Positions 1 to 51,313 are shown, numbered from the stretch's first letter. The stretch is 51,313 nucleotides of DNA from an uncultured bacterium (GCA_964356135.1 CAYHGV010000002.1:1-51313); one strand, 5' to 3'. Program-made: numbers and translations. Notes: generated by a model from the letters alone, not told the origin.

Positions 1-1046
1 TTAAGAAAGGATACGCCACTTTTTTCAAATTTCCACACCTTTTTATATTATCTCCCAGGCAGTTGATCAAAGCAATGGTTGAAGTTATGAAACCCGAACC
101 TGATTTAACTATTTGTGACCCCGCCTGCGGCACCGGGGGGTTTATGCTCGTTGCACATGATTATATTGTTAAAAACTACAAACTTGATAAAGACCAAAAG
201 CAACATTTGAAATATAAGATGTTCAAAGGTAAGGATATCGTCGATGCGGTAGTCCGATTATGCGTTATGAACATGTATTTACACGGCATCGAAGCGACGA
301 TCGAAAGTGGCGACAGCCTTATTTCTGACCCGGGTGAGCGCTTTAATATGGTCTTAACAAATCCACCGTTCGGGAAAAAGAGTAGTGTTACTATTATTAA
401 CGGCGAAGGCAAATCCGATAGAGAATCTTTAACTTACGAACGACAGGATTTCTGGGCAACAACATCTAACAAGCAACTGAATTTTCTCCAGCATTGCAAA
501 ACTCTGTTAAAAATAAACGGCCGGTGCGCCATCGTTGTCCCTGATAATGTCCTTTTTGAAGGCGGTGCCGGCGAGACGGTACGCAGGAAACTGCTTCATG
601 AATGCGATGTCCATACCCTTTTACGACTTTCCACCGGCATTTTTTATGCCCAGGGTGTTAAGGCAAATGTCCTATTCTTCGATAGAAAACCGGCAAGCGA
701 AAAACCCTGGACCGAGAAACTATGGATATACGATTTAAGAACTAATAAGCACTTTACCCTCAAAGAGAATCCTTTGCGTTACGAGGATTTACAGGACTTT
801 ATCAAGTGTTACAATCCAGCAAAACGAAATGATAGAAAAAAAACCGAACGGTTCAAGGTGTTTACCTATAACGAACTGATGCAAAGGGACAAAGTAAGCC
901 TCGATATATTCTGGTTAAAGGACGAGAGCCTCGAAGATTACGATAACTTACCCGCACCCGACATTCTCGCCCGCGAAATCGCCGACAACCTCGACTCGGC
1001 CTTAGAACAGTTTAGAGGCATTTATGAGGATTTAAGTAAGAAATAA
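1..1046 (+). CDS. hsdM: Type I restriction-modification DNA methyltransferase subunit HsdM (N6-adenine), 5'-partial at window edge
   Basis: Frame 3 has no stop from nt 3 to the TAA at 1044-1046, and the listed ORF starts at an internal TTG (nt 63). SPRQLIKAMVEVMKP resembles the TPRPLIK segment of EcoKI-type HsdM. AdoMet motif I is DPACGTGGF and catalytic motif IV is LTNPPFG. The first ~20 codons align less well. Confidence 0.85.
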   Translation, partial: KKGYATFFKFPHLFILSPRQLIKAMVEVMKPEPDLTICDPACGTGGFMLVAHDYIVKNYKLDKDQKQHLKYKMFKGKDIVDAVVRLCVMNMYLHGIEATIESGDSLISDPGERFNMVLTNPPFGKKSSVTIINGEGKSDRESLTYERQDFWATTSNKQLNFLQHCKTLLKINGRCAIVVPDNVLFEGGAGETVRRKLLHECDVHTLLRLSTGIFYAQGVKANVLFFDRKPASEKPWTEKLWIYDLRTNKHFTLKENPLRYEDLQDFIKCYNPAKRNDRKKTERFKVFTYNELMQRDKVSLDIFWLKDESLEDYDNLPAPDILAREIADNLDSALEQFRGIYEDLSKK

Positions 1047-1062
1047 AATAAAAGGAGGAACA

Positions 1063-2763
1063 ATGGCTGCATTAAGATCAGAAACGAGACCAACCACAAT
1101 GACGGTTGCTGAGTTGGTTAGATTATTCAAAAGGGGTGGAATACAGATACCAGAAATTCAAAGAGATGTGGTCTGGGAACCAGAAGACGTCAAAAATTTA
1201 ATAGATTCGATATTTCATGATTACCCTTGTGGGAGTTTAATAATGTGGGAACCACGAATTAAAGATGAACACATCATAAGGGATTTAATTAGACCTGAGA
1301 GACAGAAAATGTTTCCTGAGCCACCCCAATATTTTCTGGTTGATGGTCAACAACGTTTAACGGCACTTACGGCAATCATTATTGGATCAGATTTTATAAA
1401 TAATCTCGAACGTGAATCCGAATACAATTGGCCAACATTTTACTTTAACATCGACTTGAATCTAAATAAGACAAAAAATATCCAAAAAGCCATTGAAGCT
1501 TCATCGGAAACCGGCTACTACGCCTTTCCTTGGGTACCAATTCAAGCCTTGTTTGATGGAAATTTAGAAAGTTCCAAGAATTTCAAAAAGCTTTCAGATG
1601 AAAAACGCAAACAACTATCCGATTTTAGAGATATGATATCTACTTACTCTTTTCCAGTACAAATAATCAAAGGATTTGATTACCCTGATATTGGTGAAAT
1701 CTTTTGGAGGGTCAATTACCTAGGTACTCAGATTTCAGGAGCCGAAATTCACATTGCTAAAATTATACCTTACTGGAAGGGAATAGCAAAAGAATTTAGA
1801 AAATACTTGAGAGAGCTTGAAAAAGATAAATATATACTTGACCTAACTTTCTTAATGCGATGTTTAACCGCTTTAGGAACAAATCAATCTAAAATTGATA
1901 AGTTCTCTGATCAAGTAAAAAGCGGCAAATTGTCTAAAAATGCATTAAATCGCATTTGGAAAACGAGTAGAAAACATGTTGACAAACTCGTTCGAATTCT
2001 GAAATCAAGTGCATATCTTGATAAAACGAAATACTTCACATCAAAGAATGTCTTAGTACCTCTTGTTTATTATCTAAGTAAGAATGCCGGACGATATATT
2101 GACGAAAAAGCTATACTTCGATTCTTTTTCTTTTCTCAACTTGGAAATCATTACTCCGGCAGCACTGATACTGTCTTAAAGAAAGATTTACAACCTTTAT
2201 CAAAGCCAAAGACCAGCATAAAAAAAGCTTTACAGGACCTTTGCTCAGATATCGAGAGCGAAACAAAACAGGAATATAAAGGTCTCTATGTCGCCCCTCA
2301 TAAAATAATGGGTTCCCCCACTAAGAATCCATTAATTTTGTTGATGTATGCGATCATGAAAAAATCCGGGGCAACAGATTTTGATCTAAGCAATAAACGT
2401 TACCTCGATGAAATTGCACCTGATGAAATTCATCTCCATCATATATTTCCATACGACTTTATGATGAAGAGTAAAGAAGCTAAAGCATATCAGCTTTCAA
2501 AAGGTTTAACAGCTAGTGAATTTCGTGCAGAAGTTAATGACATTGCAAACCTAACTTTCATAAGCAAGAATCAGAATAGTAGTATCGGCAAAGAATCTCC
2601 ATGGCAGTATATGCCTAATTATACGACAAAAGATAACCTCAAAAACCATTTCATACCAACTCAAGAGAAATATTGGCGACCTCAAAAATATGATAAATTC
2701 CTCAAAAAGCGAAGAAAATTACTTTCAAAAGCAATTAATAAATTCCTCAAATCAATGAAATAA
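1063..2763 (+). CDS. DUF262 + DUF1524 protein (GmrSD-like type IV restriction / ParB-like NTPase fused to His-Me nuclease)
   Basis: SD AAGGAGG lies just upstream of the ATG. N-terminal DUF262 signatures are IPEIQRDVVW and FLVDGQQRLTAL. The C-terminal HNH/His-Me-like DUF1524 signature is EIHLHHIFP ... NDIANLTFISKNQNSSIG. The gene starts 16 nt after hsdM. Confidence 0.75.
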   Translation: MAALRSETRPTTMTVAELVRLFKRGGIQIPEIQRDVVWEPEDVKNLIDSIFHDYPCGSLIMWEPRIKDEHIIRDLIRPERQKMFPEPPQYFLVDGQQRLTALTAIIIGSDFINNLERESEYNWPTFYFNIDLNLNKTKNIQKAIEASSETGYYAFPWVPIQALFDGNLESSKNFKKLSDEKRKQLSDFRDMISTYSFPVQIIKGFDYPDIGEIFWRVNYLGTQISGAEIHIAKIIPYWKGIAKEFRKYLRELEKDKYILDLTFLMRCLTALGTNQSKIDKFSDQVKSGKLSKNALNRIWKTSRKHVDKLVRILKSSAYLDKTKYFTSKNVLVPLVYYLSKNAGRYIDEKAILRFFFFSQLGNHYSGSTDTVLKKDLQPLSKPKTSIKKALQDLCSDIESETKQEYKGLYVAPHKIMGSPTKNPLILLMYAIMKKSGATDFDLSNKRYLDEIAPDEIHLHHIFPYDFMMKSKEAKAYQLSKGLTASEFRAEVNDIANLTFISKNQNSSIGKESPWQYMPNYTTKDNLKNHFIPTQEKYWRPQKYDKFLKKRRKLLSKAINKFLKSMK

Positions 2764-35552: not shown

Positions 35553-35613
35553 AATCGTTTCGATACTTCGCCGATGACCGACGTCTCCCTCCAAAATCCT
35601 AATATAATAAAAG

Positions 35614-35980
35614 TGGAGGCGGCGGGAATCGAACCCGCGTCCGAAGCGGTCAGGCTTTGAGGACTACATAGTTAGTCGCCTCTTTGATCTCGCAGCGTAA
35701 CCGCCTGGCGACCGGCTTTCACGCTGCCAGCCCCAGTCCGTCACTTTCATGACGGCATCCATTCTGGCCCTGGGACCAAACCAGAACTTCACCTATCCTG
35801 TTAGACCCCACTTCGGGACCGGACAGGCAGAGTCCCGGGCAGAGTGGCTACTTAATTAAGCAGCCAGTGCGTAGTTGCTGTTGGCAACTGTATTTTCCCC
35901 ACGTTATATTTACGAGGTCTGTGGAGCGACCTCGCTATGCCCTCGGGGCCATCGGCACTCCGTCGAAACCCTTCGCCCCC
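35614..35980 (-). ncRNA. ssrA: tmRNA (SsrA)
   Basis: On the minus strand the 5' end is GGGGGCGAAGGGTTTCGACGG. The 3' end is GGACGCGGGTTCGATTCCCGCCGCCTCCA (T-arm plus acceptor with the G-U pair), and the terminal CCA is not fully encoded. The tag reading frame is GCC AAC AGC AAC TAC GCA CTG GCT GCT TAA, which gives ANSNYALAA. Confidence 0.93.
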
Positions 35981-44028: not shown

Positions 44029-44576
44029 ACGCATCACTCCGCGGGCGAAGTTGGTGTTTTGGCAACGATATAGATACGGATCAGATCTACCCCGGTAAAT
44101 ATCTCCCGCTAACCGACAAAAAAGAGATGGTGCAGCATGCGATGGAAGGTGTGCCCGAAGGTGAAAATTTTATCAAGAATGTCAAACCCGGCGATATTCT
44201 CGTAGCCGGAAAAAACTTCGGCTGCGGTTCGAGCCGGGAACATGCAGCCATTGCAATTCGGGGCGCTGGCATTTCGGTCATCATCGCCCGATCCTTTGCC
44301 CGGATCTTTTATCGCAACTGTGTCAATATGGCATTGCCGATTCTCGAATTACAGGCAGCGGATGAATTTAAAACCGACGATGAATTGGAAGTAAACCTGG
44401 AAACGGGTGAAATTCTTAATCTCACCCGCAAGAAAAAATACCAGGCACAGCCGGTCTCCGGACTGGAAATGGAGATTATGCACGCCGGCGGCTTGATTGA
44501 ATATCTGAAACTAAAATCTGAAACCACGAATAAACACGAAATGCGAAGCATCGGTGGAGCAGAGCGACACCAATGA
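44025..44576 (+). CDS. leuD: 3-isopropylmalate dehydratase / homoaconitase small subunit
   Basis: It overlaps leuC by 4 nt. GRSWCFGNDIDTDQIYPGKYL, GKNFGCGSSREHA and FARIFYRNCVN are present. The last ~20 codons (..SETTNKHEMRSIGGAERHQ) are encoded by repeat sequence. Confidence 0.8.
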   Translation: MNASLRGRSWCFGNDIDTDQIYPGKYLPLTDKKEMVQHAMEGVPEGENFIKNVKPGDILVAGKNFGCGSSREHAAIAIRGAGISVIIARSFARIFYRNCVNMALPILELQAADEFKTDDELEVNLETGEILNLTRKKKYQAQPVSGLEMEIMHAGGLIEYLKLKSETTNKHEMRSIGGAERHQ

Positions 44577-44962
44577 AGACGAACGGACACAAAGAAAAAA
44601 TATTTTTTAAAGACCTATCCTACGAAATAATAAATGCAGCGATTAAAGTTCATGCTCAGTTAGGGCACGGATTCTTGGAAAAGGTGTATGAAAATGCCTT
44701 GGCAATAGAACTTAAGAACAAAAATATCACTTTCCACCAGCAAGCACCGATCAAGGTTTTTTACGAAAGCAAGCTTGTCGGCGAGTATGCGGCAGATATT
44801 CTTGTAGACGATAAAATTATTCTTGAACTTAAGGCGGCGGATGAGGTCTCCGGTACCCACAAGGCGCAACTGATCAATTATTTACGAGCGACCGGCTTCA
44901 GGTTGGGCATTATTATCAATTTTGGCAAACCACGCTTAGAATACAAAAGGGTAGTCCTATGA
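44573..44962 (+). CDS. GxxExxY protein (PD-(D/E)xK nuclease superfamily, PDDEXK_3-like)
   Basis: LSYEIINAAIKVHAQLGHGFLEKVYENALAIEL contains G-F-L-E-K-V-Y. ADILVDDKIILELKA is the D...ExK core. The ATGA start overlaps the leuD stop. Confidence 0.85.
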   Translation: MKTNGHKEKIFFKDLSYEIINAAIKVHAQLGHGFLEKVYENALAIELKNKNITFHQQAPIKVFYESKLVGEYAADILVDDKIILELKAADEVSGTHKAQLINYLRATGFRLGIIINFGKPRLEYKRVVL

Positions 44963-45260
44963 TTCTTCGTGTAATTTCGTTTAGTTTTCGCTTTCGTTCG
45001 TGCTTCAAAAAGGGGGCGATTTTATGATTATTCGTGAATATTCGTGCTCATCTTCGTGTCCATTCGTATTTCAAATCGAGGTCTTTTTAATGATTCTTCG
45101 TGTAAGTTCGTGGCTACCCTTCGTGTCTATTCGTGGTTCAAATTCTGGTTATTTTTATCCTATTCGTATCCATTCGTGTTTCAAATCGAGGTCCATTTCA
45201 TGATTCTTCGTGTCAATTCGTGGCTACCCTTCGTGTTCATTCGTGGTTATCATTTGTTAT
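44963..45260 (+). repeat. TTCGTG short-period array with higher-order 110-nt tandem
   Basis: I count about 14 TTCGTG cores by eye at 10-13 nt spacing. The module atgattNttcgtg..ttcgtg..cttcgtgt..attcgt starts at 45024, 45090 and 45200. The 80-nt blocks 45061-45140 and 45171-45250 are near-identical. Confidence 0.9.
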
Positions 45261-45274
45261 CTTAAGGAGGATAA

Positions 45275-45790
45275 ATGAACCGTGACGATTTAGAAAAAAT
45301 CTTCCCTGAGCTGCAAGAGATAAAGGATACTGAGCTCAGGGATAAAGTCATTGAAGTCTGGCTGCTGGCGGTCGAAGAAAGCGGGTTTCAGGATTTGAAC
45401 CGGATTCCGTTCACCCTCCTCGCACAAACCACAACCTCTCTGGTCGACCACACCCGCCGGGTGACCCAAATGGCGATGGCGGTGGCAAAAATCCGCACCG
45501 ACCTCAATTATGCTGTCGTCGTTGCCGGCGGTCTATGCCACGATGTCGGCAAGCTCCTGGAATACAAAGAACAGTCTGGCAAGTTCTTAAAAAGTGACTA
45601 CGGCCAGCTCGTTCGCCATCCGGTGTCGGGTTACGGCCTGGCAGTCGAGGTCGGGCTGCCGGTCGAGGTTGCCCACATCATCGCCGCCCATTCCGACGAA
45701 GGCGAGAAGGTAAAACGAACTGCCGAAGCGATTGTCATCCACCACTGCGACTTCATCGACTTCGAAATCGAAAAATCAAAAACAGAATAA
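45275..45790 (+). CDS. HD-domain phosphohydrolase
   Basis: SD AAGGAGG. H..(RR)..GGLCHDVGK gives the HD motif, followed by HIIAAHSDEG and VIHHCD. Confidence 0.8.
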   Translation: MNRDDLEKIFPELQEIKDTELRDKVIEVWLLAVEESGFQDLNRIPFTLLAQTTTSLVDHTRRVTQMAMAVAKIRTDLNYAVVVAGGLCHDVGKLLEYKEQSGKFLKSDYGQLVRHPVSGYGLAVEVGLPVEVAHIIAAHSDEGEKVKRTAEAIVIHHCDFIDFEIEKSKTE

Positions 45791-45810
45791 ATTCGGTTGA
45801 TCGAAGTCTA

Positions 45811-45839
45811 TTGACTCAAGTCTAAACAGCCGTTATACT
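45811..45839 (+). promoter_or_regulatory. Sigma70-like promoter upstream of Fic gene
   Basis: TTGACT (45811-45816), a 17-nt spacer, then TATACT (45834-45839). Confidence 0.55.
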
Positions 45840-45901
45840 CCTTTTATGAAGATAACCTACCTGATATTTTTTAATACTTTATTTTAAAAGGAAAATGAAT
45901 T

Positions 45902-46939
45902 ATGTTTAACCCCAACTTCCACTACAGCCATAAAATAGTCAACAACCTAACCCGGATTGCGGTAGCACGAGAACTAATCCTCAATTCTCCGTTGGTTCCG
46001 AAATGGGAAGTGGCGCTTCGCCGCGATGCGATCATCCGCAGTGCCCATTCCTCAACAAGCATCGAAGGAAACCGGCTATCTTTGGAACAGGTGAGTGATT
46101 TAGCCAACGGTCGGAAAGTAATGGCAACCCGTAAAGACAAACAGGAAGTCTTAAATTATTTGAGGGTGTTGGAAAAAATTGAGAAATTAACTAATGGCAA
46201 AACGATTCAAGAAAAAGACATTTTCAATATTCACAAAATGTTAACTCAAGATACTTTGGAGAATTCATCCGATTGTGGAGTCTATCGAGATCGTTATGTC
46301 ATAGTCGGAAACAGGCTAACCGGCGAGGTCTTTTTTCGCCCCCCGGTCAATGAAGCGGTGCCGGGGTTAGTACAAAATCTCCTCGAATGGCTGAATTCAC
46401 CCGAAGCGGAAGAACTGGACCCGGTGGTTGCGGCCGGAATTACCCATTATGAATTTGTTAGAATCCACCCGTTTGTAGATGGCAATGGAAGAACCGGCCG
46501 AGTTCTGGCGGCATTGATACTTTACCGGCGGGGTTTTGATACGAAACAATTTTTCTGCCTGGATGATTACTACGATTCTGACCGACCGGCTTATTATCAA
46601 GCGTTACGGAGTGTTGACCAAAAGACATTGGACTTAACTCAGTGGCTTGAATATTTTGTCGAAGGAGTGGAAGCGAGCCTTGCTGCGGTCAAGGAAAGAG
46701 TATTACGGCTCAACAGCGAACGATTGCGAACAACGAAAAAAGGACAGATCGCCCTCACCGAAAGGCAGATGAGAATTGTGGAGCATATCGTAGCTAAAGG
46801 CAAAATCACGAATTACGAGACAAGAAAAATGTTTAAGTTCACAGACCGGGCAGCATTAAAGGAAATAAGAAAGTTAGTTGATTTAGGGGTTGTTAGACCC
46901 AGCGGCAAGGGAAGGACTTTGCATTATGTACTGGCATGA
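45902..46939 (+). CDS. Fic-family protein (AMPylase-type) with C-terminal winged-helix domain
   Basis: The Fic motif is HPFVDGNGRTGR. An N-terminal inhibitory-helix-like motif is SSTSIEGN, fitting (S/T)xxxE(G/N). The C-terminus is LTERQMRIVEHIVAKGKITNYETRKMF..LVDLGVV (wHTH). Confidence 0.88.
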   Translation: MFNPNFHYSHKIVNNLTRIAVARELILNSPLVPKWEVALRRDAIIRSAHSSTSIEGNRLSLEQVSDLANGRKVMATRKDKQEVLNYLRVLEKIEKLTNGKTIQEKDIFNIHKMLTQDTLENSSDCGVYRDRYVIVGNRLTGEVFFRPPVNEAVPGLVQNLLEWLNSPEAEELDPVVAAGITHYEFVRIHPFVDGNGRTGRVLAALILYRRGFDTKQFFCLDDYYDSDRPAYYQALRSVDQKTLDLTQWLEYFVEGVEASLAAVKERVLRLNSERLRTTKKGQIALTERQMRIVEHIVAKGKITNYETRKMFKFTDRAALKEIRKLVDLGVVRPSGKGRTLHYVLA

Positions 46940-46950
46940 CTCAACAGATG

Positions 46951-46986
46951 GTTCGGGATTAAGTTCGGGATTAAGTTCGGGATTAG
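46951..46986 (+). repeat. 12-nt tandem repeat x3 (GTTCGGGATTAA)
   Basis: gttcgggattaa gttcgggattaa gttcgggattag begins 12 nt after the Fic stop. Confidence 0.9.
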
Positions 46987-47043
46987 GTTGATGATTTTAG
47001 AATCCCTGGTAAAACACTTTAAACCCGGGACGCTCGGTAGGTC

Positions 47044-47071
47044 TTGCCTTAAAGTCGGTTGCTGTTACAAT
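47044..47071 (+). promoter_or_regulatory. Sigma70-like promoter of the HhH-MTase-HEPN operon
   Basis: TTGCCT (47044-47049), a 16-nt spacer, then TACAAT (47066-47071). ATG 47086 is preceded by AGGAA. Confidence 0.45.
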
Positions 47072-47085
47072 AATGTAGACAGGAA

Positions 47086-47412
47086 ATGAAATATCAGGAA
47101 AAGAAGGCAATTGATAAAGAAGGCAAGGAAATTGTCTGGAAGCATCCCGGAGGAAAGCTGCGAAGGCTTGGTCCAACTTCACTAACAGATGCAGAGCTTT
47201 TAACCGTAATTCTCGGTTCAGGAAGTCGGGGCAGGTCAGCGAAAGAAATAGCCGAGGAAATTATCTGCAAATACTATTCACTGCAAGGATTAATGGGAAA
47301 AACGATCAGCGAGTTAATGAAAGTCAGAGGATTGAAAGAAGTAAAAGCAACTCAAATCGCCGCAGTCTTTGAGGCTGCACGCAGAATTGTAAAGGGAATA
47401 GAAAAAGAGTAA
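47086..47412 (+). CDS. RadC/UPF0758 N-terminal helix-hairpin-helix domain protein (no JAB/MPN domain)
   Basis: LRRLGPTSLTDAELLTVILGSGSRGRSAKEIAEEIICKYYSLQGLMGKTISELMKVRGLKEVKATQIAAVFEAARRI matches the RadC N-terminal region. The ORF stops where the JAB domain would begin. Confidence 0.7.
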   Translation: MKYQEKKAIDKEGKEIVWKHPGGKLRRLGPTSLTDAELLTVILGSGSRGRSAKEIAEEIICKYYSLQGLMGKTISELMKVRGLKEVKATQIAAVFEAARRIVKGIEKE

Positions 47413-47413
47413 A

Positions 47414-49936
47414 ATGTCAGAGTTTGAGACCAAGATCCCAACGGTAGAAAAATCAGAAATAAATCATTTGAATAGGCAATTTCCTCCCTTAGCCCATACA
47501 CCGATGTATAACTGGCATAAATTTTGGGGTAGAAAGACCTGGAATGTTGTTGCGGAGTACATCAAAACATATTCTAAAGAAGGCGAGATAGTATTTGACC
47601 CATTTGCGGGCAGCGGTGTTATGGCGATGGAAGCATTAAAAAATAGGCGCCGGGTTATAATTTGTGACCTCCTTCCTGTTGCTACCGAAATTGCACGATT
47701 AACAATTAAACCCGTCTCTGAAGTGGAACTTTTTAACGCTTATAAAAGAGTTGAAAAAAGGGTAAAGAACAAAATTTTAACCCTTTATAAAACAAGATGC
47801 CGAAAATGCAAAACAGTATTCCCATTTACCTGCTCGGTATGGGAAAACAATAAAATGATCGAAATTCGTTATCAGAGTTGCCCTCATTGCGGTGACAGGA
47901 GAGAAAAAAACACCCCTCCTACAAAAGAAGATTCAGAATTATTACAACGTATCGAAAAAAGAGGAATTAAAGAATGGTACCCTAAAAACCCGCTCTATTA
48001 TCCCGATGGCAAGCCTTTTAAAGAAAAGCAACAATATGAATCCCTTGATGGATTGTTTACAAAACGGAACCTCCAGACATTAGCTTGGTTAATGGAAGCT
48101 ATCGAAGAAGAACCTCATAAAGATTTAAGAGATTTTTTGAAAATCGGCTTCACTTCGATGGTTCATTTAGCGACCAAAATGATGCCGGATAGACCTACAA
48201 GGCCTTTTAGCTCTGTCTGGAATGAACATAGTTACTGGTTTGCTGATCACTTTATGGAACAAAATGTTTGGGATTTATATGAGAGTGCTATTGCTGGCAA
48301 ACAAGGTTTAATAAAAGGTAAGAACAGCTCTAATCAACATTTTAAAAATATAAAATTTGCAAAAGATTATGACGAAATTCTAAATGGCAAAGCGGATGTT
48401 TATATCCATACCGGCTCATCCTTAGAACTAATGGAACAAATGCCAAAAGGCAAGATTGATTATATTTTTACAGACCCCCCTTACGATTCTTCTATTCAGT
48501 ATGGTGAACTTGCCTATCTTTGGGTTGCTTGGTTAAAGAAAGATAAAGATTATTTGAATTACCTACTTTCGAATGAAATAATTCGTAATGAAAAACAGAA
48601 TAAAGATTTTGGTATTTACAATAGTTTACTTTCAAGAAGCTTCGACGATATGCTTGAAATCATAAAGCTTGGGGGATATTTAACCGTCACCTTCCACAAT
48701 CCCACTTTTAAAGTAAGAAATGCCACTATCAGGGCAGGGATTTTTGCAGGGTTTGAATTTCAAAAAATTCACCATCAAGAACTTGCACGCCCATCTGCAA
48801 AATCACTTTTGCAGCCATTTGGTTCGGCTCAAGGTGATTTTTATCTCAGATTCTACAAACCCCAGCTCACCGAAACCGTCCCTCGACCAGAGGAAATTGA
48901 TGAGAAAAGATTCGAAAATATAGTCGTAGAAACAACAATTGGTCTTTTAGCTGAACGAGCTGAAGAAACTCCATATACTCAAATAATAAATTCAATAGAC
49001 CCTGTCCTCGCTAAACACGGATATTTTTCAAGTCTTGAGACCGGTCTTGATGTGAAGAAGGTTTTACTAAAGCACAAAGGGGAAGAGTTTATTTTGGTTA
49101 AGGCTAAAATTGGTGGAGCGACCGGAGAATTGTGGTGGCTGAAAGAACCCTCAAAATATATTAGGTATGATATACCACTTTCCGAAAGGGTGGAGGAAAC
49201 GGTTTACCGAGAACTTTTAAGCAAAGGTAAAGTAACTTTTACAGAAGTATGGGATGCGGTTAGCACAAAATTCCCTAATTCCTTGACATCTGATAGCAGT
49301 AGTATAATGAACGCATTAGTTCAATATGCAAGGAAGGTTCCCGGTGGACACTGGATGCTAAAACCAGATTATTTCGCTCGCGAGAGTCAGCATAACGATG
49401 TGTTAGCACTATTAGCAGAAGTGGGAAAAAGTTTAGGCTTTAAAATCTGGATTGGCAAAAATGAACAAAGTAAACTCGCGGGTGGTTTAGCCGGGCATAA
49501 AAAACTAAAAGAATTAGTCACCGCCGACCTTAATGACATTAGAATAGATAATAAAACGACCATCGAGCTGATAGACCTTTTATGGATTAAAAACAACCAG
49601 ATTGCAAGTCTGTTTGAGATTGAATTCACCACTACGATGACAGGAGCTTTGAATAGAGGGTCAAATGTCGCCCCTCAAGTCCCCAAATACTTAGTCATTC
49701 CCGAGGAAAGAGAAGAACAACTGAAGAGAAAACAAAAATCCCCAATGTTTTCCGAACGATTTAAAAATGATAATTGGAATCTATTGTTTTTTGATGCTGT
49801 CAGAAATTCGTATAAAAAGCTGAAATCACATAAGATTGAATTGAAATCAATCATTAACAAACAAGGACCAATAGCACTACGTCCAAAAGGTCCCGAAAAT
49901 AGGCAAACAAATATGTTCCAGAAAAATGAACTATGA
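47414..49936 (+). CDS. Zn-ribbon-containing DNA (adenine/cytosine-N) methyltransferase with nuclease-like C-terminal domain
   Basis: It starts 1 nt after the previous stop. The AdoMet motif is FDPFAGSG (aa 61-68), the Cys4 ribbon is CRKC..CPHC (aa 129-159), and the catalytic motif is FTDPPY (aa 352-357). The C-terminal aa ~655-810, with IELIDLLWIKNNQIASLFEIEFTT, is reminiscent of a PD-(D/E)xK-like core (D...ExE). Confidence 0.75.
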   Translation: MSEFETKIPTVEKSEINHLNRQFPPLAHTPMYNWHKFWGRKTWNVVAEYIKTYSKEGEIVFDPFAGSGVMAMEALKNRRRVIICDLLPVATEIARLTIKPVSEVELFNAYKRVEKRVKNKILTLYKTRCRKCKTVFPFTCSVWENNKMIEIRYQSCPHCGDRREKNTPPTKEDSELLQRIEKRGIKEWYPKNPLYYPDGKPFKEKQQYESLDGLFTKRNLQTLAWLMEAIEEEPHKDLRDFLKIGFTSMVHLATKMMPDRPTRPFSSVWNEHSYWFADHFMEQNVWDLYESAIAGKQGLIKGKNSSNQHFKNIKFAKDYDEILNGKADVYIHTGSSLELMEQMPKGKIDYIFTDPPYDSSIQYGELAYLWVAWLKKDKDYLNYLLSNEIIRNEKQNKDFGIYNSLLSRSFDDMLEIIKLGGYLTVTFHNPTFKVRNATIRAGIFAGFEFQKIHHQELARPSAKSLLQPFGSAQGDFYLRFYKPQLTETVPRPEEIDEKRFENIVVETTIGLLAERAEETPYTQIINSIDPVLAKHGYFSSLETGLDVKKVLLKHKGEEFILVKAKIGGATGELWWLKEPSKYIRYDIPLSERVEETVYRELLSKGKVTFTEVWDAVSTKFPNSLTSDSSSIMNALVQYARKVPGGHWMLKPDYFARESQHNDVLALLAEVGKSLGFKIWIGKNEQSKLAGGLAGHKKLKELVTADLNDIRIDNKTTIELIDLLWIKNNQIASLFEIEFTTTMTGALNRGSNVAPQVPKYLVIPEEREEQLKRKQKSPMFSERFKNDNWNLLFFDAVRNSYKKLKSHKIELKSIINKQGPIALRPKGPENRQTNMFQKNEL

Positions 49937-49973
49937 AAAATATTTTTGAAAAAGGCTAACAACTGGAGGCTCT

Positions 49974-50858
49974 ATGAACGAAATGCAAAGCTTTGGGTTG
50001 TTGACCTACATGCCTTTCGGCGACCTCCAAAGTGAAATAAAATTTGAACGTGGAATTTCAATAACCCCTGTCCAGCAAAATAGTTTTGGCAAAATAGAAG
50101 AAATAGACAGAGGACGAGTTTCGGAGGAAGACTTTAAAATCATCAATAGTTACAATAACGCAGTCAAAAAAGAATATGATACTCCTACAACATACGCACA
50201 TGCAGAGAACGATATTCTTTGTTTCGTCGCCACATTGCGCATAGTTAAACCTATCCTTGCTTATCCGAATTATTTCCTTCACTACATACCCCATACAATG
50301 GAATGGAGGTTTAACAAACACAACATCGATTCTGCTTTTTCGATTGAAGAACATGAAAATAATGATCTAAGGGAATTTCCTGTAAACCGCCTGCCAGAAG
50401 TTATCCCTCTATGGGAAAATATGCCGGACATACAAACGAATAAAGGCCGTGTCTGGATAGCGTTGTGGTTAAATGAATTTGCCTATCAGGAGCGACAAAC
50501 TGAGTTTCGTATCCTGTATTTTGTCATGGCATTGGAAAGTCTCTTTGGTATATCAAATTCCGAGCTAAGATTTAGGTTATCTCTAACAACTGCAAGATTT
50601 ATATCAAACGACTTTGGCGAAAGAGACGAAATCTTTACGAACATTAAAAAAGCATACGATATAAGGTCAGGTATAGTCCATGGCTTACGAAAAGAATTAG
50701 AATTAAGCGATCTGCGGTTTGCTGAAATAAACCTTCGTGAATATCTCCGGAGAGCTTTGCTCAAAATTATGCAAGATAGAAGTTTAATTCAAATATTCGA
50801 AAGCACGGACGAGGATTACAATAAATTTATAAAAAACCTAGTTTTAGACAGTAAATAG
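49974..50858 (+). CDS. HEPN-domain protein (Apea/MAE_28990-like)
   Basis: SD GGAGG. The C-terminal helical region is ILYFVMALESLFG...RFRLSLTTARFIS...IKKAYDIRSGIVHG, which carries the Rx4H HEPN motif (RSGIVH). Confidence 0.65.
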   Translation: MNEMQSFGLLTYMPFGDLQSEIKFERGISITPVQQNSFGKIEEIDRGRVSEEDFKIINSYNNAVKKEYDTPTTYAHAENDILCFVATLRIVKPILAYPNYFLHYIPHTMEWRFNKHNIDSAFSIEEHENNDLREFPVNRLPEVIPLWENMPDIQTNKGRVWIALWLNEFAYQERQTEFRILYFVMALESLFGISNSELRFRLSLTTARFISNDFGERDEIFTNIKKAYDIRSGIVHGLRKELELSDLRFAEINLREYLRRALLKIMQDRSLIQIFESTDEDYNKFIKNLVLDSK

Positions 50859-51182
50859 TATCGGCAAAAATCAGGATGGGTTTAAGAGAGCAGCAAGGGG
50901 GTCTGCGTCTTAGCCAAACCTGATTGTAACTGTAGAAAGTTGGCCAGTTCCTCAGCCGAAAAGTAGAGCCCCCGGTTTACCCTTCCTAAAAAAGCTATAT
51001 TTCCGCTAAGCATAGATAATTATCATTTTTGTTAATTATCTGTCCTTAGTGACCTGCGTCAACTATAAAGGTCGTGCCCCGGGAAAATCTGGTGGAAGGA
51101 ATGATACCGTTGTTATAATCGTTGGCTGGAGCAAATATCGAAAAAAATCGGGACACAGAGCTTGTCCCAAAAGTCCTTATAG

Positions 51183-51284
51183 TCATTGCGAGCGACCGTA
51201 GGGAACGTGGCAATCTCAGTATTTACAACATGTTTTATGAGATTGCTTCGTCGCTTTGCTCCTCCATTAGACTTAATAATGGAG
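51183..51284. repeat. Inverted 'cattgcgag...gcaatctc' palindromic element plus second hairpin
   Basis: tcattgcgagcgaccgtagggaacgtgGCAATCTC (to 51217), a 21-nt loop, then GAGATTGCttcgtcgctttgctcctc (from 51239). A second hairpin is CTCCATTA (51262-51269) / TAATGGAG (51277-51284). Confidence 0.7.
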
Positions 51285-51313
51285 ATAAGTTATAATGGAA
51301 CACTTGGGAAAAA

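Follow-up and report, generated by a model that had tools for sequence, protein, structure and literature searches.

Do three neighbouring genes on the same strand form one defence system, or have separate units come to lie side by side? The question is raised by a locus in a stretch of 51,313 nucleotides (nt) from an uncultured bacterium (GCA_964356135.1 CAYHGV010000002.1:1-51313), which at its full length is called the window here. Three open reading frames (ORFs) follow one another on the + strand of this DNA. The first, ORF1 (47086-47412, +), encodes 108 amino acids (aa) that form a stand-alone RadC N-terminal DNA-binding domain of the (HhH)2 type (HhH, helix-hairpin-helix). ORF2 (47414-49936, +; 840 aa) joins a permuted DNA methyltransferase to two winged helices and a nuclease-like tail, while ORF3 (49974-50858, +; 294 aa) has a predicted HEPN domain at its C-terminus, preceded by an N-terminal domain without an assigned fold. 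The gaps are 1 nt between the first two ORFs and 37 nt between the last two, and the window terminates 455 nt after ORF3.

A preliminary description of this DNA, made from the sequence alone, had listed the same three ORFs with these lengths and gaps, in agreement with our ORF calls, and had read them as a candidate defence operon without a name, taken here as a new system whose three components are all obligate. Such a reading draws on the tight same-strand spacing behind one promoter-like site and on domains that are all plausibly directed at nucleic acids. Adjacency and plausible domains suggested a three-gene system; gene order in other genomes instead reveals a two-gene module and an independent HEPN gene. 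In our judgement the locus probably holds two independent units side by side in a small AT-rich acquired region 3' of leuCD, one being a mobile module of the restriction-modification (R-M) type made up of ORF1 and ORF2, and the other the single HEPN gene ORF3. Domain identities, the conservation of motifs and the gene order are shown by the comparisons below, and every enzymatic activity, as well as the part played in defence, is inferred. The AT-rich character of the block, pointed out earlier, is plain from its content of guanine and cytosine (GC), which is 0.380 for the ORF1-ORF2 module and 0.371 for ORF3 as opposed to about 0.52 for the core of the window.

The Conserved Unit

Homologues of ORF2 were sought in one genome per species among 185,579 species representatives. 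The scan was built on query-derived peptide patterns and its loci are biased to closer relatives; the 41 loci found, at 45-79% identity, are a lower bound. They come from Thermodesulfobacteriota, Nitrospirota, Planctomycetota, several phyla of the Candidate Phyla Radiation (CPR), Zixibacteria, Ignavibacteriota, Bacteroidota, Chlorobi and others. The family as a whole counts more than 2000 full-length homologues (as clusters) within the same range of identity, from at least 10 phyla, many of them uncultivated. Neighbouring genes were taken from a simple ORF caller, with about 30 neighbours scanned against Pfam and precomputed tables used for L047-L051 (the prefix L marks numbered loci throughout).

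A short gene like ORF1, hereafter the stub, lies directly 5' of the methylase gene in 24 of the 41 loci and in many phyla, in several of them as a tandem duplicate or a fusion. In a blastn comparison of the window with its nearest relatives (L001 and L002), homology extends from 47083/47087 to 49884 only; it opens at the start codon of ORF1 and stops about 50 nt before the stop codon of ORF2. Because DNA homology is confined to this span, the conserved unit consists of ORF1 and ORF2 alone. What follows the methylase gene on its 3' side differs in almost every locus and is mostly a housekeeping gene. Encoded there are an amidohydrolase, a KAP NTPase, a GAF-ANTAR protein, PdxJ, PriA, a PEP-CTERM protein, DUF2130, LarC, NuoG, HolA, a short-chain dehydrogenase (SDR), a gamma-polyglutamate (gamma-PGA) hydrolase and a ParE/helix-turn-helix (HTH) pair. 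ORF3 is found in none of the 41 scanned methylase loci, no relative of it flanks the methylase in three further module loci (L047/L048, L049/L050 and L051), and a HEPN gene of any kind stands 3' of the module in just 2 of 45 distinct loci (the 41 scanned, the three further ones and the window).

ORF1 and ORF2 are a conserved, tightly coupled two-gene module, and ORF3 is not part of it. The single system first proposed has to be divided accordingly: the pairing of ORF1 with ORF2 is real, and the trio is not syntenic in any of the 41 or the three further loci. An obligate system of three components is also at odds with the view from ORF3, since none of eight ORF3-family loci has the module, and with the DNA homology to the nearest relatives, which ends before ORF3. 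By the criterion of synteny that the preliminary description itself had set, we regard such a system as all but refuted.

The promoter-like site that had been noticed ahead of the three genes (TTGCCT-N16-TACAAT; 47044-47071, +) is indeed present, with 9/12 matches and a TG extension. However, 23 such sites were observed in the AT-rich region of 6.8 kb against 14.3 +/- 4.0 in shuffled sequence, and none of the related loci conserves the sequence 5' of ORF1. As a controller-protein test, a shared operator or promoter was looked for 5' of the stub, and no common 9-mer was found among 24 loci beyond those of duplicate contigs. The promoter-like site is weak evidence because sites of its kind are frequent in this AT-rich stretch.

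ORF1, a RadC N-Terminal Stub

Residues 21-88 of ORF1 correspond to Pfam UPF0758_N (63.4 bits, cut-off 27.1; E 2e-17). The NCBIfam RadC model is matched at positions 3-82 of 212 only, with 67 bits against a cut-off of 180, and identity to the N-termini of full-length RadC proteins is 33-39%. In PHROG, ORF1 is paired with the HhH region of NAD-dependent ligase. It was therefore correct to describe ORF1 as the HhH half of RadC and nothing else. Although it is homologous to the N-terminal HhH domain of RadC/YicR (UPF0758), ORF1 is not a member of that family: the ORF stops at aa 108 with the HhH domain alone, the JAB/MPN domain that defines the family is absent, and the gene is coupled to a methylase gene rather than free-standing. 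Stubs in two tandem copies occur 5' of the methylase in L007, L011, L014, L032, L036 and L047/L048, where they are two genes of their own or are joined in a single ORF of about 186-190 aa.

The Methyltransferase Part of ORF2

The motifs first noticed in ORF2 were all located. FDPFAGSG is found at aa 61, CRKC at aa 129, CPHC at aa 156 and DPPY at aa 354, and the distance from motif I to DPPY is 293 aa, close to the roughly 290 aa given before. The region around motif I, which would bind S-adenosylmethionine (SAM), covers aa 44-94 (47543-47695, +) and corresponds to the C-terminal end of Pfam N6_N4_Mtase (positions 169-219 of 221). It also matches the PDB methylases RsrI, MboIIA and PvuII, and its residues are nearly invariant. 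The catalytic half (aa 326-484; 48389-48865, +) contains motif IV as TDPPY at aa 353-357, and its first part (aa 326-402) corresponds to the N-terminal, DPPY-bearing end of beta-class models (NCBIfam PRK11524, positions 12-85; CcrM, 6pbd). Since the motif I end precedes the DPPY end of these beta-class models, the order of the methylase is permuted; the permutation had been suspected from the motifs, and both halves of N6_N4_Mtase (47 bits, cut-off 26.7) are now matched in swapped order.

Between the two halves lies a Zn ribbon, CRKC...CPHC (aa 129-159; 47798-47890, +), whose four Cys residues are at least 90% conserved in 55 homologues, as are motif I and DPPY each. The PADLOC model for PglXI aligns with aa 165-484, which comprise the insert and the catalytic half (E 2e-43), and several Type II methylase models match as well, over a range from E 2e-43 to 1e-31 with PglXI included. 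ORF2 is, as its sequence predicts, a DNA methyltransferase of the N6/N4 type in circularly permuted order, containing a Zn ribbon and an insert like that of PglXI. JGI names such as RsmD would make it an RNA methyltransferase instead. This is unlikely, as the best matches are to DNA methylases and the protein combines winged helices with a nuclease domain of the restriction type and has an HhH partner. A profile of full-length ORF2, compared with PDB sequences, returned nothing but the methylase motifs, no hypervariable target-recognition segment was observed in the family, and the PADLOC, NCBIfam and Pfam libraries searched contain no full-length model of the family and give it no specific name.

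Winged Helices and a Nuclease-Like Tail

The remainder of ORF2 (aa 486-840) was modelled with AlphaFold (AF2) from 55 homologues, with a mean predicted local distance difference test (pLDDT) score of 85. In the model, two winged-helix domains (aa 496-650; 48899-49363, +), presumed to serve in DNA binding or recognition, are followed by an alpha/beta domain at aa 652-805 (49367-49828, +). The order of elements in this tail is helix, strand, strand, strand, helix, strand, which is the layout of a PD-(D/E)xK domain. When aa 486-840 were submitted to Foldseek, tandem winged-helix proteins were retrieved (Rpc5 tWHD2 with E 3.5e-3, also RPC62, STK19 and forkhead domains). FokI was the second match (E 5.8e-3 over 432 columns), with a low template modelling (TM) score of 0.20.

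Eight residues of the tail (H660, E684, Q685, D721, E735, E737, T740 and R748) do not vary even when the most divergent members of the family are included, and K758 is invariant in the 55 closer homologues and replaced by Arg in some of the most divergent ones. Two of the tail motifs are IDLLW at aa 720 and FEIEFTT at aa 734. D721 opens the second strand and E735-x-E737 belong to the third, and the predicted active site reads D...ExE, with Glu replacing Lys. The same Glu-for-Lys variant of the PD-(D/E)xK site is known from BamHI.

Precomputed Pfam annotation of ORF2 homologues names PF27126 (NmeDI_C). This domain maps to the tail, because it is annotated on a fragment of aa 148-835 and absent from a fragment of aa 1-646. 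NmeDI is a characterised restriction enzyme of 351 aa whose cuts fall on either side of RCCGGY, at some distance from it (PMC2095814). When the tail was used by itself as a profile, it gave only spurious leucine-rich repeat (LRR) matches and no solved nuclease among PDB sequences, and matched nothing in a Pfam copy that does not contain PF27126. The tail can be called nuclease-like at the level of fold and motif, and the invariance of its acidic residues argues for catalysis. A restriction-endonuclease-like module at the C-terminus had been proposed at the outset, and the proposal has held up well through the modelled topology, the NmeDI_C annotation and the rank of FokI in Foldseek. Rather than a non-nuclease fold devoid of conserved acidic residues, AlphaFold and Foldseek give a PD-(D/E)xK-like topology in which E684, D721, E735 and E737 are invariant.

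A Putative Single-Chain Restriction-Modification Enzyme

Taken together, sequence and model make ORF2 most likely a putative single-chain R-M enzyme. As in enzymes of the Type IIC/IIG/IIS-like kind, one polypeptide joins methyltransferase motifs (both motif I and motif IV are present) to a domain of the PD-(D/E)xK type, recognised by fold and motif, and no separate restriction gene is conserved nearby. The winged-helix domains precede the C-terminal cleavage-type domain as they do in FokI, and the Pfam family of the tail bears the name of a restriction enzyme that cuts at a distance (PMC2095814). Type IIG/IIL enzymes such as MmeI and Eco57I are arranged differently, with an N-terminal nuclease and a gamma-class methylase, whereas ORF2 has its nuclease-like domain at the C-terminus, a permuted methylase of the beta type (PF01555) and a Zn ribbon. 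It further departs from known single-chain R-M enzymes in its D...ExE site, its translationally coupled HhH protein and an unusually high conservation across phyla.

The layout of motif I, Zn ribbon plus helical insert and DPPY is shared with PglXI of bacteriophage exclusion (BREX) type 3 and with DUF1156/COG1743 methylases, but ORF2 covers only about 290 of the 919 positions of the PglXI model. Membership of BREX type 3 was rejected, as there is no PglZ, BrxC or helicase set among the annotated neighbours of the methylase or in the window. The loci examined contain no gene for BrxC, PglZ, BrxHII, DUF499 or DUF3780, and in related loci nothing is conserved beyond the pair. The DUF1156 anti-phage system was rejected as well: NF042963 (DUF1156_antiphage) reaches 23.6 bits over 34 residues against a cut-off of 1000, and no partner genes were seen. 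We know of no report of a PglXI or DUF1156 protein with an NmeDI_C-type nuclease tail, and to our knowledge the architecture of permuted methylase, two winged helices and NmeDI-type nuclease has not been described before. R-M fusion enzymes, HEPN genes of abortive infection and the co-location of the two are already known. What appears to be new, within the libraries and papers that could be searched, is the architecture of ORF2 and its frequent RadC-derived HhH partner.

A mechanism can be proposed for this module. The ORF1 gene would be translationally coupled to ORF2, and the two winged helices probably position ORF2 on DNA. The enzyme would then methylate host sites and cleave unmethylated incoming DNA with its PD-(D/E)xK nuclease and D...ExE site, probably at some distance from the recognition site, as FokI and NmeDI do. 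The HhH protein may be an accessory that binds DNA non-specifically and that some lineages can do without. If active, the ORF2 family would represent a novel R-M subtype and might yield new specificities.

ORF3 and Its Family

ORF3 itself has no match in Pfam, PADLOC or NCBIfam. Its HEPN-like helical domain (aa 160-290; 50451-50843, +) contains ALESLF at aa 186-191 and YDIRSGIVHG at aa 228, the latter with R231-x4-H236 at nt 50664-50681. A word-indexed search found four relatives only, all with ALESLF and Y..RS.IVHG. An exhaustive profile search, by comparison, recovered 14043 cluster representatives (clusters at 50% identity) with E <= 1e-3, 3568 of them with E <= 1e-10, and most members are about 300 aa long. 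Four residues (E188, Y228, R231 and H236) never vary among 69 homologues with about 20-25% identity to ORF3, and two more, S232 and G237, reach at least 90% conservation. The Rx4-6H motif that had been singled out in ORF3 is thus present, and conserved among its homologues through R231 and H236.

The structural picture is less clear. The AlphaFold model of ORF3 is poor overall (pLDDT 54.6), although aa 160-290 form an all-helical bundle with a pLDDT of 67-89 per 10-residue block. Its best fold match in the PDB is the HEPN protein 2hsb, with a probability of 0.91 but E 0.19 and a TM score of 0.46, and comparison of the model with a viral structure library gave nothing meaningful. By sequence, ORF3 matches the phage family phrog_28161 (E 1.4e-9). 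A few members of the family carry JGI or NCBI names such as 'Apea-like HEPN' or 'HEPN domain-containing protein', and single members have weak matches to HEPN_Apea (Pfam, E 0.076) and to HEPN_RiboL-PSP. Ten members compared with Pfam had no HEPN-family match.

We take ORF3 for a predicted HEPN protein that is distantly Apea-like. It is a distant relative and not an ApeA orthologue, because characterised ApeA is about twice as long and has three domains. Both are stand-alone genes whose products end in a HEPN domain, predicted in the case of ORF3, and have an invariant Rx4H motif. In contrast to the 294 aa of ORF3, ApeA has about 580 aa divided among N-terminal, Mid and split HEPN domains, and in Ec2ApeA the HEPN domain alone takes up residues 335-583; the N-terminal domain of ORF3 is unrelated or unknown. 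With this length, with no PADLOC or Pfam match and with one of the 69 family members hitting the PADLOC ApeA model (E 8e-5), ORF3 was not accepted into the ApeA family. None of the Pfam and PADLOC models used here matches the ORF3 family, and the lack of any name for so large a family likewise appears new within the same libraries and papers.

ApeA is an abortive-infection nuclease that cleaves tRNA anticodon loops (bioRxiv 10.64898/2026.01.26.701840). By analogy, ORF3 would be a latent RNase, with its Rx4H site formed in a dimer, that might be switched on in infection via its N-terminal domain and abort the infection. Its family, which numbers about 14,000 representatives of clusters made at 50% identity, is a candidate single-gene abortive-infection system.

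HEPN, Fic and Restriction Genes Side by Side

Genes of the ORF3 family are stand-alone and often found in defence, toxin-antitoxin or prophage settings. One of the eight loci (L043) adjoins an MmeI/Eco57I-type R-M enzyme together with RAMA and TIR genes. In another (L044) an SNase-domain gene lies directly 5' and Dam and SacI R-M genes a few kb off, and a third (L054, 79-6912) contains two N6/N4 methylases, a 582-aa unknown protein, a Fic gene, the ORF3-family HEPN gene and two GmrSD genes. An unnamed locus adjoins AbiTii in a prophage-like region, and L053 adjoins a Gp49/HTH toxin-antitoxin pair. L045 and L052 are housekeeping settings, and L042, the contig of the ORF3 homologue P0004, places the gene among unknown small genes. 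In L042, 15 of the 15 called neighbours have no Pfam match on record, and the region may be phage-derived or otherwise novel.

The window has a Fic gene of its own, at 45902-46939 (+), which confirms the Fic neighbour that had been reported (Pfam Fic, E 3e-22; PADLOC SoFic, E 2e-61). Against NCBIfam SoFic it scores 91 bits with a cut-off of 550, and the product is best called a Fic family protein, below the score of the SoFic equivalog. The gene lies outside the ORF1-ORF2 module and within the same variable region, and together with the AT-rich block it looks like a small acquired island. A similar row is found in L049 (4358-9132), a module locus, where Fic, stub and methylase are followed by a HEPN_Cthe2314 gene. 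A larger conserved block of Fic, stub, methylase and HEPN was considered from these two loci and rejected: the methylases are 68% identical, but the Fic proteins only 28%, and the HEPN proteins are unrelated.

Company of this kind has been described. A paper of 2013 calls HEPN domains 'tightly associated with many R-M systems' and catalogues HEPN genes of several families inside or next to R-M operons, often in the company of Fic/Doc toxins; the ApeA family is among those found within R-M operons, and PrrC/RloC among those seen with Fic/Doc (PMC3710099). The repeated meeting of R-M, Fic and HEPN genes, whose members are interchangeable, agrees with this published picture, and the combination is not unrecognised, contrary to the preliminary description.

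Could ORF3 then be a guard of the module, in the manner of PrrC? R-M would form the first line, and the HEPN RNase of ORF3, restrained by the R-M enzyme or sensing its state, would fire once a phage has knocked out restriction. The third prong would be Fic, and three or four genes would cooperate here with partners that are interchangeable across genomes. Such a role would suit the position of ORF3, which begins on the same strand 37 nt after ORF2 with its own GGAGG ribosome-binding site, no terminator-like site found in between and a nearly equal GC content. It would also suit the independent assembly of Fic, stub, methylase and HEPN_Cthe2314 in L049, the two methylases with Fic and an ORF3-family HEPN in L054, and the closest full-length homologue of ORF3, which lies 2 genes from an MmeI-type R-M enzyme. 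A published model has HEPN proteins acting jointly with R-M, and PrrC/RloC occurring with Fic/Doc (PMC3710099). However, the presence of a HEPN gene 3' of the module in as few as 2 of 45 loci speaks against cooperation, and partners that are unrelated or 28% identical fit co-location in variable regions equally well. An R-M or methylase cluster lies within 6 kb in 3 of the 8 ORF3-family loci (L043, L044 and L054), with no R-M gene seen in the other five. PrrC-EcoprrI and other HEPN proteins embedded in R-M loci resemble ORF3 in standing directly beside an R-M-type enzyme and near Fic/Doc (PMC3710099). PrrC differs in its regulatory ABC-ATPase domain and its place inside a Type Ic hsd operon, whereas ORF3 has no ATPase domain, adjoins a single-chain R-M gene and shows no conserved linkage to it. 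A guard function of ORF3 is therefore doubtful, and two independent units remain our preferred account.

Mobility and the Enolase-Linked Lineage

How far does the distribution of the module agree with a mobile R-M system? In 33 loci, the GC content of the methylase gene is 0.41 +/- 0.04 in any host, while that of the flanks ranges over 0.32-0.58, and the gene is usually below its flanks. Copies from CPR bacteria are 72-74% identical to that of the window, as opposed to only 59-61% for other copies from Thermodesulfobacteriota. In lineages that contain the stub, gene contexts are unrelated even at 77-79% methylase identity, and the phylogeny conflicts with taxonomy. The reading frame of the methylase is broken into several ORFs in L036 (2896-5392), L037 (2779-5347) and L040 (6004-8527), which are apparent pseudogenes or assembly frameshifts. 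From these sequence comparisons, the ORF1-ORF2 module is judged to move horizontally and to be open to loss. In plasmid and phage collections no full-length homologue of ORF2 was found, and the matches were to methylase cores only, at 21-30% identity.

Several observations weigh against a pair of independent defence units. Most neighbourhoods of the module are housekeeping in nature and not defence islands. Eight loci from Ignavibacteriota, Bacteroidota and Chlorobi (L018-L021, L023, L027, L028 and L035) have the methylase-nuclease without the stub, always between enolase and a phosphoglucomutase-family gene. The pairwise identity of these stub-less methylases (mean 72%) tracks that of enolase (78%, r = 0.91) and also that of the phosphoglucomutase gene (58%, r = 0.86), so that the methylase evolves more slowly than the mutase. 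These copies look vertically inherited and strongly constrained, about as slow as enolase, which is unusual for an R-M gene. In the tail, the third catalytic position is Glu (ExE) and not Lys, which could mean an altered or inactive site, and the domain has no sequence match to any solved nuclease, with FokI matched at the low TM score given above. As for ORF3, the low overall pLDDT and the E of 0.19 for its HEPN fold match count on the same side, and the short gap, near-equal GC and want of a terminator-like site between ORF2 and ORF3 make co-transcription or functional coupling possible at this locus.

From the stub-less loci one could conclude that restriction is not the function at all. 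ORF2 would be a conserved chromosomal enzyme of DNA modification or processing. It might, for instance, be an orphan regulatory methylase in which the nuclease-like tail serves for DNA binding alone, or a repair enzyme that makes methyl-directed nicks; the HhH protein would be a DNA-targeting partner and ORF3 an unrelated neighbour. The fixed place between enolase and phosphoglucomutase genes and the rates just described would be expected of such an enzyme. So would 45-79% identity over 840 aa in at least 10 phyla, neighbours that are mostly housekeeping genes, a family without a hypervariable target-recognition segment and a Glu at the position of the catalytic Lys. The lineages with the stub tell a different story, as they are clearly mobile, with host-foreign GC, unrelated contexts and a phylogeny at odds with taxonomy. 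Copies have decayed to fragments in 3 loci, and the gene is present in only 41 of the 185,579 species representatives (a lower bound). Moreover, the acidic residues of the tail are invariant and its domain is common to a bona fide restriction enzyme. We consider a role outside restriction unlikely.

A bolder proposal, and an improbable one, is that the ORF1-ORF2 family couples adenine methylation to DNA incision (e.g., in methyl-directed nicking that serves repair or the control of replication) as a strongly constrained chromosomal enzyme, and is not a classical restriction enzyme. In Bacteroidota, Ignavibacteriota and Chlorobi it would be a resident gene passed on by vertical descent, and it would have been mobilised secondarily into other phyla along with a RadC-derived HhH partner. 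On any account, it would be odd for a defence gene to evolve about as slowly as enolase and to keep a fixed place, as the methylase-nuclease does in the Bacteroidota/Ignavibacteriota group.

The Surrounding Region

The lower-GC variable region in which the three genes lie starts with a PDDEXK_3 (PF13366) gene at 44573-44962 (+; E 4e-42), which begins 4 nt before the end of the leuD-like gene, and the region also contains HD and Fic genes. The intergenic sequence 44959-45248, between the PDDEXK_3 and HD-domain genes, holds a 91-nt direct repeat in two copies, 88% identical and 110 nt apart, and a 22-nt repeat in four copies. An Rfam scan of 44500-51313 gave no matches. Between the stop codon of the Fic gene and the promoter-like site of ORF1, at 46950-46986, the 12-nt unit GTTCGGGATTAA is repeated three times in tandem, the last copy being imperfect.

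Farther away, a tmRNA gene at 35613-35980 (-) specifies the tag peptide ANSNYALAA. At the opposite end of the window, 63-2763 (+) is a second defence cluster of low GC (about 0.35), in which a fragment of an N6_Mtase/Eco57I-type methylase, truncated by the start of the window, is followed by a GmrSD Type IV restriction gene.

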